Below, one piece after another: positions 15,001-18,000 of a stretch of 51,153 nucleotides of DNA (the stretch's first letter is position 1; every line of letters starts with the position of its first letter). This DNA comes from a virus. Its lineage: Duplodnaviria > Heunggongvirae > Uroviricota > Caudoviricetes. A program made the position numbers. The stretch lies in the IMG/VR virus record IMGVR_UViG_2939521961_000005, one strand, 5' to 3'.

Positions 15001-18000
15001 ATCCAGTTGTGAGTTAATCAACGCTGATTGCCTGGAATTTATCCAGACCTTACCGGAAAACTCTGTCGATCTGATAGTCACAGACCCGCCATACTTTAAA
15101 GTGAAGCCCGAGGGCTGGGATAACCAGTGGGAGGGCGACGATGATTACCTGAAATGGCTGGACCAGTGTCTGGCGCAGTTCTGGCGGGTACTGAAGCCTG
15201 CCGGAAGTCTTTACCTGTTCTGTGGTCATCGCCTGGCATCTGACACCGAAATCATGATGCGTGAGCGCTTTAATGTGCTGAACCACATTATCTGGGCGAA
15301 GCCGTCCGGACGCTGGAACGGGTGCAATAAGGAAAGTCTGCGGGCGTATTTTCCGGCAACAGAGCGCATTCTGTTTGCAGAACATTATCAGGGACCGTAT
15401 CGCCCGAAAGATGATGGCTATGTGGAGCAGGGGCGCGAGCTAAAACAGCACGTCATGGCCCCGCTGATTTCTTACTTTCGTGATGCGCGTAAATCACTGG
15501 GAATAACGTCAAAACAGATAGCGGAAGCCACCGGAAAGAAAAACATGGCTTCGCACTGGTTTGGTATCAGTCAGTGGCAGTTACCGAACGAGGGTGATTA
15601 CAACAAATTGCAGGCGTTGTTTGCGCGTGTTGCGGCAGAAAAACATCAGCGCGGGGAACTGGAAAAGCCACACCACCAGCTGGTCAGCACATACAGTGAG
15701 CTGAACCGGCAGTATACGGAACTGCTGAGTGAATATAAAAATTTGCGGCGGTATTTCGGTGTGACGGCGCAGGTTCCGTACACCGATGTCTGGACGCATA
15801 AACCGGTGCAGTACTATCCAGGGAAACATCCGTGCGAAAAACCGGCAGAAATGCTGCAGCAGATAATCAACGCGAGCAGTCGTCCGGGAGACCTGGTTGC
15901 AGATTTTTTTATGGGTTCAGGTTCAACGGTAAAAGCGGCGATGGCACTGGGGCGTTGTGCGATTGGTGTTGAGCTGGAGACCGGACGCTTTGAACAGACA
16001 GTCAGGGAAGTTCAGGATTTAATCGTTTGAAACGGATGAGATTGCAGAATTAATTACGCACCATTATTATTCTGCTCCCGGCCCTTTAGCTCAGTGGTGA
16101 GAGCGAGCGACTCATAATCGCCAGGTCGCTGGTTCAAATCCAGCAAGGGCCACCATCACAAACCGCCATTAGCTTATCAGGAAGAGCAGACGACACCATA
16201 ACAGGGTTGTTGGTGCGGGGGCGGGTCCCCGATGGCGGTCCATTATCGGTATTCTGCGTTGTTAGCTCAGCCGGACAGAGCAATTGCCTTCTAAGCAATC
16301 GGTCAGTGGTTCGACTCCACTACAACGCGCCACACTTATTTTCCAGGCTCGCTTCGGCGGGCCTTTTTTGTATCTGCGCCACGCCCGGCGCATATCAACC
16401 ACAGAGCCTTTCGGGGGTGAGCTTACGGAGTGGTCAGTGTGACTTTCTCTGTGGGCAGATCGCTCCCGGGCGTTGGCTCACCCACCCAAAGGAACGTCAC
16501 GATGTTTGGAATCTTCAAAAAGAAAACCCGCAGAGCGGCAGCGGAAATTAAAAAGTTTGAGAAACGCGATCTGGCACAGGCGGTGATTAACGCTGCATAC
16601 CTGGTGGCCTATGCAGATGGTGAATGCGAGGCATCCGAGAAAGCGAAGATCGAACAGGTCTTACGTAATCAGCCTGCGTTGTCTGCGTTTACCTCGGAAA
16701 TTAATGCGATTAGCGCAACTATTATCGGTCAGCTGGATACCAATTTTAAAATTGGTCGTCGTGCCGCGTTACGCGAGATTGAGGATGTGAAACACGATAC
16801 GCGTGAAGCGGAAGATGTGCTGGATGTGGCGGTGGCCATTGCGGAGGCAGACGGCGAAATTGAGCCGGAAGAGCGCAAGGTGCTGGAAGAGATTGCCGGT
16901 GTTCTGGGTCTTCGTCTGGAGAATCACCTGTGACGGTAAAACTGCGCCTGGCTGTGGCTGCACTCCTGCTGTTTCTGGTGGTGATGGTGGATTTCACCAG
17001 CAGAATCATGTCGGTGCTGGCGGATGGGGTGCTGGTCTGCGGCATTGTGGTATTGCTGTGGCCGGTGATAAAAAGAAACAGCCTGCATAATGCTTGGTTT
17101 TTTTGTTTGCTGTTTATTAAAAACACTTCTGCATGGTGAATCCCCCTGTGCGGAGGGGCGATCAGCAACCAGGTATATGGGATAATCGCGGATTCAGGTG
17201 CTGATACTGAATTCACCGGGAGGCACCCGGCACCATACAAGAAAAAGAATGTGCATGCAAACATGCCCCTCTCCGGAGGGGCTTTTTTATGGGTAAAAAA
17301 TGCCCGAATGGGTTCGGGCAATAGCATGAGATACTGATATTGTTGTGTTGTTATCGTGTGGATTTTAACCAGGGTTTATCAGGCTGCGCAACTGCGTGGC
17401 CTTTTTTCATTTCTTGGGCTGTAGTCCCCGTGTGTCATTCAGGCTTCCGGACTACAGCCCACTCCATATCTGATTTAATACACTATCCCGGCCGGGAGGA
17501 ATAATGACATTTAAACATTATGATGTTGTCAGGGCGGCGTCGCCGTCAGACCTTGCGGAAAAGCTGACACACAAACTGAAAGAGGGCTGGCAGCCGTTTG
17601 GTAGTCCGGTGGCCATAACCCCTTATACCCTGATGCAGGCGATTACAGCAGAAGGTGATGTGGTGGTCAGTGGTGCAACTGAGCCGGATTGGTACTACGT
17701 CATCGTACTGGCCGGGCAGTCCAATGCCATGGCTTACGGTGAAGGGCTTCCGCTGCCGGATTCATACGATGCTCCGGATCCGCGCATTAAACAGCTGGCG
17801 CGCCGCAGTACAGTGACGCCGGGTGGGGCTGCCTGCAGATATAACGATATTATTCCGGCCGACCACTGCCTGCATGATGTGCAGGATATGAGTACGCTGA
17901 ATCATCCGAAGGCAGACCTGAGCAAAGGGCAGTACGGCTGTGTCGGCCAGGGCTTACATATTGCCAAAAAACTGCTTCCGTATATCCCGAATAACGCGGG

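Follow-up and report, generated by a model that had tools for sequence, protein, structure and literature searches.

The lambdoid prophage contained in virus record IMGVR_UViG_2939521961_000005 (Caudoviricetes; 51,153 nucleotides, the whole stretch being called the window below) carries in its late region a pair of overlapping genes that, judged from sequence, is the known phage accessory (moron) module tciA/tciB. As parsed here, the module sits within the late, Q-dependent region of a prophage of the enterohaemorrhagic Escherichia coli (EHEC) O26:H11 type, at the site where Shiga toxin (Stx) phages carry stxAB. Its identity and architecture in this slot are close to certain. The pair is not a discovery, and any function assigned to it is putative. 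The first-pass annotation had suggested a compact cargo module of uncharacterised function; the genes are, however, already named tciA/tciB in phages JLK-2012 and P1 (in P1 ‘by homology’), are covered by PHROG families 632 and 1470, and bear the standard RefSeq names ‘tellurite resistance TerB family protein’ and ‘DUF3927 family protein’. That reading would have fallen had the pair proved to be a widespread phage gene of known structural or lysis function; widespread it is, but no such function is known for it. The one element that appears to be undescribed, and that is worth experimental follow-up, is a structured RNA leader directly 5' of tciA.

TciA is a 143-residue cytoplasmic protein of the TerB fold, encoded from the ATG at 16502 to the TGA ending at 16933. 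A profile search places residues 26-138 in Pfam TerB (PF05099) above the curated cutoff (E 2.9e-16, 60.2 bits against 24.4), which upholds the TerB-like protein of 143 residues proposed at first pass. The match to PHROG 632 (‘tellurite resistance’) covers residues 1-143 of 143 (E 1.7e-69), and the solved TerB structure 2JXU is matched at E 4.4e-8. An AlphaFold (AF2) model built on 20 homologues consists of seven helices (mean confidence, pLDDT, 88.5), and its closest structures in Foldseek are both TerB-like (2h5n, probability 1.00, TM-score 0.56-0.62; 2ou3, probability 0.82). The two conserved acidic (A)DG...E motifs that characterize the TerB family, and are thought to bind metal, are present: D23, E46, D117, G118 and E124 are invariant, and D39/G40 are at least 90% conserved, in alignments reaching down to 42% identity. 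Weaker profile matches, both under the family cutoffs, connect the protein to DUF533 (E 3.4e-5) and DjlA (E 1e-6), and no transmembrane segment is found in TciA. The cargo had been taken to begin at 16430, which is merely the start of the longest open reading frame (ORF); 16430-16501 is non-coding and lies within the RNA leader, because homologous leaders have 1-nt indels there. An N-terminal extension of TciA from the GTG at 16430 is ruled out by these indels, which occur across 16430-16501 in relatives, together with the covarying RNA in the same interval.

TciB is a small membrane protein of the DUF3927 family (Pfam E 1.2e-16), and its residues 1-54 match PHROG 1470 (‘TciB-like’) over positions 1-54 of 54 (E 7.9e-30). 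Two hydrophobic segments (approximately residues 5-21 and 27-46) and basic termini suggest a hairpin whose two ends both face the cytoplasm. The gene starts with the GTG at 16930 and overlaps the tciA stop by GTGA (16930-16933), an arrangement by which the two genes are predicted to be translationally coupled. The ORFs, the DUF3927 match and the hydropathy profile all agree with the GTGA-coupled protein of 69 residues and two transmembrane segments that had been described. This length requires comment. In the window, the usual tciB stop has changed from TGA to TGG (17095-17097), and the frame runs 14 codons further, from 55 to 69 residues, into the small RNA (sRNA) gene STnc100. Relatives are about 50-55 residues long (length distribution in 156 loci), with 54-55 residues the usual size, and RefSeq annotates the 69-residue form. 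The longer form is an atypical read-through and is not to be taken at face value in annotation.

The two genes travel together, as the first-pass annotation had asked to see. Viral contigs were retrieved with either a window-type TciA (80 contigs) or a P1-type TciA (80 contigs), the two types being ~42% identical. A two-transmembrane ORF of 50-55 residues overlaps the tciA stop in 78/79 window-type loci and 78/80 P1-type loci (156/159 in total), and the genes are also adjacent in P1 and in phage Pollock, which we take to be N4-like. By its full-length matches to both families and its start/stop overlap, the pair belongs with the P1-type tciA/tciB module. No ORF of at least 40 residues starts on the + strand within 17139-17340; tciC of P1, at 35 residues, falls below that limit and was not searched for by sequence. 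TciA by itself turns up in Erwinia jumbo phages and in phages of Vibrio, Pseudomonas and Salmonella. Among complete E. coli genomes, 790 of 5426 (~15%) contain at least 80% of the interval 16370-17097 (leader, tciA and tciB), with a median of 4 and a maximum of 10 matching places per positive genome, and the module is multi-copy in EHEC. A chromosomal remnant comprising the leader and the 5' end of tciA was observed in E. coli ATCC 43896 (NZ_CP024278, ~2628008-2628250; L294 2501-2743), where it adjoins a pseudogene of an IS200/IS605 transposase and carries the annotation of a partial DUF3927 pseudogene; the same remnant occurs in many genomes of the extraintestinal pathogenic E. coli (ExPEC) type.

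The leader of tciA (~132 nt, 16370-16501) is better conserved than the tciA coding DNA, and it is present in 80/80 window-type loci, even where tciA is only 80% identical in DNA. A covariance model made from helices P0, P2 and P3, with P1 and P5 left out, finds one copy in the window (16370-16504, 141.3 bits; the last three bases are the tciA ATG). Covariation was tested on an alignment of 64 distinct sequences under a five-helix structure of 43 pairs. Cells are paired at 90.4%, compared with 86.2% in a shuffle control and 37-48% in controls with slid partners. Both sides change in 30 of the 43 pairs; the shuffles average 11.6, with 0/500 reaching 30, and the slid-partner controls give 8-15. 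Support for P1 and P5 is independent of the alignment procedure, because both lie outside the covariance model. In loci fetched by protein, with no RNA pattern, P1 shows the compensatory variants CCGCAGAG/TCTGCGG, CCATGGAG/CTCCATGG and CCACAA/TTGTGG. P5, in which an internal GUGAC(UUU) at 16439-16446 pairs with the bases just 5' of the start codon (16493-16500), is kept by four sequence pairs: GTGAC/GTCAC, ATGCTTT/AAAGCAT, ATTACGTC/GACGTAAT and CGGTT/AACCG.

Because P1 and P5 each cross both P2 and P3, the predicted fold is either multiply pseudoknotted or an ensemble of alternative conformations. This crossing is also the reason why the minimum free energy fold of the single sequence (z = -2.4) and RNAalifold miss P1 and P5. 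A possible alternative hairpin, P4 (16432-16436/16440-16444), is 90% paired, with changes on both sides in only 1/5 pairs. An extra J1/2 pairing, UCAGG-CCUGA, had been spotted by eye and was dropped, being broken in L032-type sequences. A permissive scan of 13500-20000 against Rfam 15 gives no match at E<=1 over 16376-16501; the only sub-threshold match nearby, to STnc100 (20.1 bits, 16271-16375), reaches no further than the leader's first few bases. The literature searched yielded no description of the element.

The leader is not confined to window-type tciA. Pattern searches, the first two of which required the P1 and P2 arms, also place it 5' of P1-type tciA and 5' of unrelated genes encoding two kinds of HNH endonuclease, an NMT1-like periplasmic binding protein and an 89-residue protein. 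Among the P1-type TciA loci fetched by protein alone, 53/80 have canonical leaders and ~15 more have variants with P1 changed on both sides; phage P1 itself lacks the leader. The covariance model also detects diverged copies (59-60 bits) directly 5' of ant, between R and Rz, in BP-4795, PPyecE_EH1910 and 933W, and no copy 5' of stx2A in 933W. Across the representative genomes of 100,044 species, a pattern needing invariant P1 and P2 arms finds the leader in 7, all Enterobacterales or a metagenome-assembled genome, and always 5' of tciA.

Could the upstream stretch instead encode no functional RNA, and be conserved through recent spread or because it acts at the DNA level, as a promoter, an operator or a site of recombination? 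Many of the copies do come from E. coli prophages and are near-identical, the first two search patterns demanded the P1 and P2 arms, and the shuffle control ignores relatedness. However, the slid-partner controls keep relatedness and still fall well short of the covariation observed, the compensatory changes in P1 come from loci retrieved by protein, and P5 is maintained by four different sequence pairs, both helices standing outside the model behind the alignment. Furthermore, the leader persists 5' of TciA proteins that are only ~42% identical and precedes genes as unrelated as those for HNH nucleases, a periplasmic binding protein and ant. A non-RNA explanation is accordingly improbable.

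A broader proposal, offered tentatively and with the balance of belief somewhat against it, is that the leader represents an undescribed family of pseudoknotted cis-acting RNAs that gate how accessory genes carried on late transcripts are translated in lambdoid phages and their enterobacterial kin; the genes so gated would include tciA, the HNH endonucleases and ant of 933W and BP-4795. Its members might act as riboswitch-like sensors or could even process themselves. If the proposal is true, late-region cargo in EHEC prophages is under a so far unrecognised layer of expression control. The leader itself, for which the comparative support is strong, is a testable handle on the translation of accessory genes inside a highly transcribed Stx-type late operon.

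The slot itself lies in an EHEC-type lambdoid prophage, with 16340-17503 matching E. coli 2014C-3057 at 100% identity and O26:H11 strain 11368 at 99.9%, where the gene annotations read TerB family and DUF3927 family. The first-pass reading of the region (Q-like gene, terminator, methyltransferase, tRNAs, cargo without stx, nanS-p and lysis genes, with the cargo in the stx position) stands throughout. The ORF list, ARAGORN, Pfam, RefSeq and a terminator scan support the gene order (Table 1), RefSeq annotation of the same prophage supplying the class II holin, lysozyme and Rz 3' of nanS-p, and tciAB thus occupies the late operon 2.5 kb 5' of the lysis cassette. For the CAU tRNA, ARAGORN calls Met and RefSeq annotates Ile. 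No stx gene lies between the tRNAs and nanS-p in the window. Right-flank homology and the gene order of 933W confirm the position: 17117-17503 is ~85% identical to the DNA that separates stx1B from the esterase gene in BP-4795 and in ~150 Stx-phage records, which have no tciAB at that site, and 933W reads Q, pR', terminators, tRNA promoter, ileZ, argN, argO, terminator, stx2AB, esterase. The annotated terminator 5' of stx2A in 933W is at the same place as T0, the terminator-like hairpin that closes the tRNA unit in the window; the stem sequence of T0 differs between loci, yet it precedes the leader in most aligned tciA upstream regions.

Table 1. Features of the tciAB slot, the neighbouring late region and related leader copies (window positions unless another record is given)
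Feature	Position	Strand	Basis or remark
Q-like late antiterminator gene (DUF1133 / Phage_antitermQ)	13766..14320	+	Pfam PF06576 E 4.7e-101, PF06530 E 1.5e-6; RefSeq DUF1133 family protein
Terminator-like hairpin between Q-like gene and methyltransferase	14817-14834		Terminator scan
N6/N4 DNA methyltransferase	14981..16030	+	Pfam PF01555 E 2.6e-44; RefSeq DNA-methyltransferase
tRNA, CAU anticodon (annotated tRNA-Ile2)	16080..16155	+	ARAGORN; Rfam tRNA 72.5 bits; RefSeq tRNA-Ile
tRNA-Arg (UCU)	16256..16332	+	ARAGORN; Rfam tRNA 67.3 bits
T0, terminator-like hairpin and U-run closing the tRNA unit	16345..16369	+	Scan match 16345-16364 plus TTTTT
Structured 5' leader of tciA, ~132 nt	16370..16501	+	Covariance model, covariation
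Leader helix P0	16376-16380/16387-16391	+	
Leader helix P1	16399-16406/16447-16454	+	Long-range
Leader helix P2	16415-16424/16474-16483	+	
Leader helix P3	16427-16438/16455-16466	+	
Leader helix P5	16439-16446/16493-16500	+	Pairs the spacer between Shine-Dalgarno and AUG
tciA, 143-aa cytoplasmic TerB-fold protein	16502..16933	+	Pfam TerB, PHROG 632, 2JXU, AF2/Foldseek
tciB, DUF3927 two-transmembrane protein, 69-aa read-through form	16930..17139	+	Pfam DUF3927, PHROG 1470, hydropathy, alignment
sRNA STnc100	17102..17294	+	Rfam RF02076, 141.5 bits against gathering 47, full-length model
AgvB anti-sRNA (GcvB sponge)	17295..17356	-	Rfam RF02702, 96.5 bits against gathering 56, identical to consensus
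nanS-p type sialate O-acetylesterase, conserved right border of slot	17504..19354	+	Pfam DUF1737, SASA, DUF6645; RefSeq SASA family carbohydrate esterase
Leader copy 5' of ant, 933W	NC_000924 26717-26856 (L295 8218-8357)		Covariance model
Leader copy 5' of ant, BP-4795	L004 9330-9469		Covariance model
Leader copy 5' of ant, PPyecE_EH1910	L005 9453-9592		Covariance model

With Q and tRNAs upstream, convergent sRNAs and nanS-p downstream, and homology of the flank, the locus is a member of the Stx-type moron slots. In general terms the architecture is in the literature already: according to Tree et al. 2014 (PMC4104026), morons insert at this site, 3' of pR', and the moron coding sequence is followed by convergent sRNAs. 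The left side of the slot differs in other tciAB phages, with three other tRNAs in JLK-2012, a toxin-antitoxin-like pair in PPyecE_EH1910 and Q directly in Evi. Phage tRNA genes adjoin tciAB in three differing settings, namely P1 (Asn, Thr ... Ile2; L003 2849-4509), JLK-2012 (Asn, Thr, Gly; L002 4757-5751) and the window (Ile2, Arg; 16080-17139), and in both P1 and the window tciAB lies 3' of a DNA methyltransferase gene. Just 3' of the Q-like gene, in the expected place of pR', qut and a leader RNA that terminates early, 14406-14511 (+) shows sub-threshold Rfam matches to AgrB (27 bits) and isrK (21.6 bits). The same prophage also contains a sok antitoxin RNA (11576-11750, +, 114.9 bits) adjoining a RefSeq hokD-type toxin gene, and a DicF sRNA (5078-5129, -, 76.7 bits).

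Directly 3' of tciB, the sRNA genes STnc100 and AgvB converge, the AgvB terminator facing that of STnc100. The ‘strong terminator’ reported after the pair at first pass is real as a hairpin and U-run (17265-17290) but belongs to STnc100, whose 3' end it forms according to both the terminator scan and Rfam. The 5' end of STnc100 lies 5 nt past the canonical tciB stop, the layout of an sRNA derived from a 3' untranslated region. Of all the elements in the slot, only AgvB has a function shown by experiment, namely to act as a sponge for GcvB, by which growth in bovine rectal mucus is improved (Tree et al. 2014, PMC4104026). In a 2026 preprint, the TerB gene figures among the genes conserved next to the PasA/PasC sRNAs, and STnc100 is related to PasD. 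Between AgvB and nanS-p, 17381-17410 (+) holds a further terminator-like hairpin (9 bp) with a U-run, absent at this position in JLK-2012 and Evi; a further small RNA could end there. In P1 (NC_005856, ~70170-70200; L003 3670-3700), the sequence ‘caccgggaagcacccggcacc’ 5' of tciA resembles the conserved core hairpin within STnc100 (CACCGGGAGGCACCCGGCACC). The parsed order of the slot is thus T0, leader, tciA, tciB, STnc100, AgvB, and the STnc100 terminator needs care in annotation.

The mobile unit comprises T0, the ~132-nt leader, tciA, tciB and STnc100 with its terminator, followed in the window by the convergent AgvB. In the proposed working of this unit, Q-modified RNA polymerase would read through T0 in lytic growth, so that the pair is mainly transcribed then; such read-through is inferred because a scan finds no promoter-like site on the + strand between T0 and tciA and because 933W has its terminator at the same place. 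In P1, tciAB is likewise found within the C1-repressed ban operon. The leader would limit or gate tciA translation, with P5 tying up the bases between the Shine-Dalgarno sequence and the AUG, and this gating would suit a membrane protein, nucleases or an antirepressor embedded in a very abundant transcript. Start/stop coupling would then yield TciB in a fixed proportion to TciA. As a two-helix hairpin of 50-55 residues, TciB would anchor or partner TciA at the inner membrane, and the soluble TciA would bind metal or a small ligand through its two acidic DG...E motifs at the inner membrane face. The weak DUF533 and DjlA profile matches tie TciA to membrane-tethered TerB-like proteins. A putative TciA-TciB membrane complex is held at even weight for and against. 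The role of the module is most plausibly a dispensable membrane-level function aiding the infected cell or the phage; non-essentiality of tciA, tciB and tciC in P1 was scored in a CRISPR interference screen (PMC10695390), and an action of standalone phage TerB proteins against superinfecting phages was proposed by Iyer et al. 2021 (PMC7824862). Exclusion of superinfecting phages or pore-forming colicins, or buffering of envelope stress, is the leading candidate for this role, yet any such specific assignment is speculative and more likely to prove wrong than right.

Several points weigh against this combined explanation, in which a moron module, a membrane partner and gated late expression are joined, and confidence in it stands evenly balanced. 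The leader's effect on translation is deduced from base pairing alone. By nearest-neighbour energies, the nested P2+P3 fold dominates at -54.6 kcal/mol, against ~-41 for folds containing P1 or P5 alone, and therefore P1 and P5 must be tertiary or alternative contacts. Gene fusion offers no Rosetta-stone support for contact between TciA and TciB: the only fusions, P0004 and P0066, match the separate genes at ~94-100% identity and probably arose by frameshift, and the TciB relatives found are otherwise always small standalone proteins, with no multi-domain relative. No experiment on TciA or TciB was found in the literature searched, nor any functional study of DUF3927, tciA/tciB or phage TerB in defence or anti-defence. 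Comparison with the PADLOC-DB 2.0 defence models yields nothing for TciB and, for TciA, only a negligible match to PDC-S48 (E 0.0035, 14.5 bits). Finally, placement in the late operon argues against protection of the lysogen, while read-through from a tRNA promoter, as from pT of 933W, may occur.

This last point bears on the idea raised at first pass, that tciAB is lysogenic-conversion cargo, expressed in the lysogen and blocking phages or stress by a Ter-like mechanism. The classical ter operon, including terB, has been described as giving phage and xenobiotic resistance (PMC7824862); the module sits in a recognised moron slot (PMC4104026), is repeated in EHEC genomes to the extent given above, and could receive some transcription from an upstream tRNA promoter such as that annotated in 933W. 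The phage-resistance reading nevertheless finds no direct support here. A terminator lies directly 5' of the unit with no promoter-like site before tciA, the P1 copies are in a C1-repressed operon, no other ter gene is linked, and the sole PADLOC match is too weak to count. The TciA homologues in Erwinia jumbo and N4-like phages, both of which we presume to be virulent, also misfit a role confined to lysogens. Compared with the late-expressed membrane module, defence of the lysogen is thus the less probable role, and we consider it a minor contender.

Fainter still is the case for TciB as a holin- or antiholin-like protein, with TciA its cytoplasmic regulator and the pair tuning lysis timing or membrane energisation late in infection. 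Class II holins are small two-transmembrane proteins with basic termini, the format that TciB shares at 50-55 residues, and the pair is in the late operon near the lysis cassette. The Pfam search with TciB, however, matched DUF3927 only and no holin family, and the prophage already has a class II holin, lysozyme and Rz. Moreover, the P1 pair is non-essential and is found in the ban operon, away from the lysis genes, and in Pollock and the Erwinia jumbo phages the gene is near the genome start, not obviously in a lysis region. Tellurite resistance as such is probably not the role, and a tellurite- or metal-resistance function is the least credible account of all: TerB family membership and the PHROG and RefSeq names favour it, but those names, like the P1 annotation, are by homology only, the phenotype requires several ter genes, and no terC, terD, terE or terZ is linked. 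What remains is a conserved phage module, present in several copies per EHEC strain and at the very site of the Shiga toxin genes, that carries little weight as a discovery.

Among known systems, the closest is tciA-tciB(-tciC) of P1, with the same two families in the same order, the start/stop overlap, and an association with phage tRNA genes 3' of a DNA methyltransferase gene; TciA is 42% identical over its full length and TciB 48% over 42 residues. Unlike the window, P1 has the third small gene tciC, no structured leader and control by C1 within the ban operon instead of a lambdoid Q-dependent late region, and its tciB lacks the extension to 69 residues. TerB of terZABCDE (2JXU) shares with TciA the Pfam TerB domain, an all-helical bundle and the two acidic DG...E motifs. 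However, no linkage to terC, terD, terE, terZ or terA is seen in the window, where the neighbours are the Q-like gene, methyltransferase, tRNAs, tciB, esterase and lysis genes; the partner is a DUF3927 mini-membrane protein, and the pair is phage-borne. The stxAB moron of 933W and BP-4795, at the site described by Tree et al. 2014, resembles the unit in position, 3' of Q, tRNAs and a terminator and 5' of STnc100, AgvB/AsxR and nanS-p, with the right flank ~85% identical. It differs in that the cargo here is tciAB rather than a toxin, and that tciAB has its own structured leader, of which the model finds no copy 5' of 933W stx2A.

The N-terminal region of DjlA and YebE/DUF533 provide a second kind of parallel, a TerB-like domain at the cytoplasmic face of the inner membrane as proposed for TciA, in keeping with the weak profile matches. 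Both are single-chain proteins in which a membrane helix and the TerB-like domain are joined, an architecture described for DjlA in PMC11709261, whereas in tciAB the membrane part is a separate two-transmembrane polypeptide and there is no J domain. The leader, in turn, recalls translational riboregulators, including riboswitch expression platforms and RNA thermometers such as that of lambda cIII, in that P5 pairs with the initiation region and the helices are alternative or pseudoknotted. Unlike these, the tciA leader is without an Rfam match, lies inside a long polycistronic late transcript, and is common to unrelated accessory genes.

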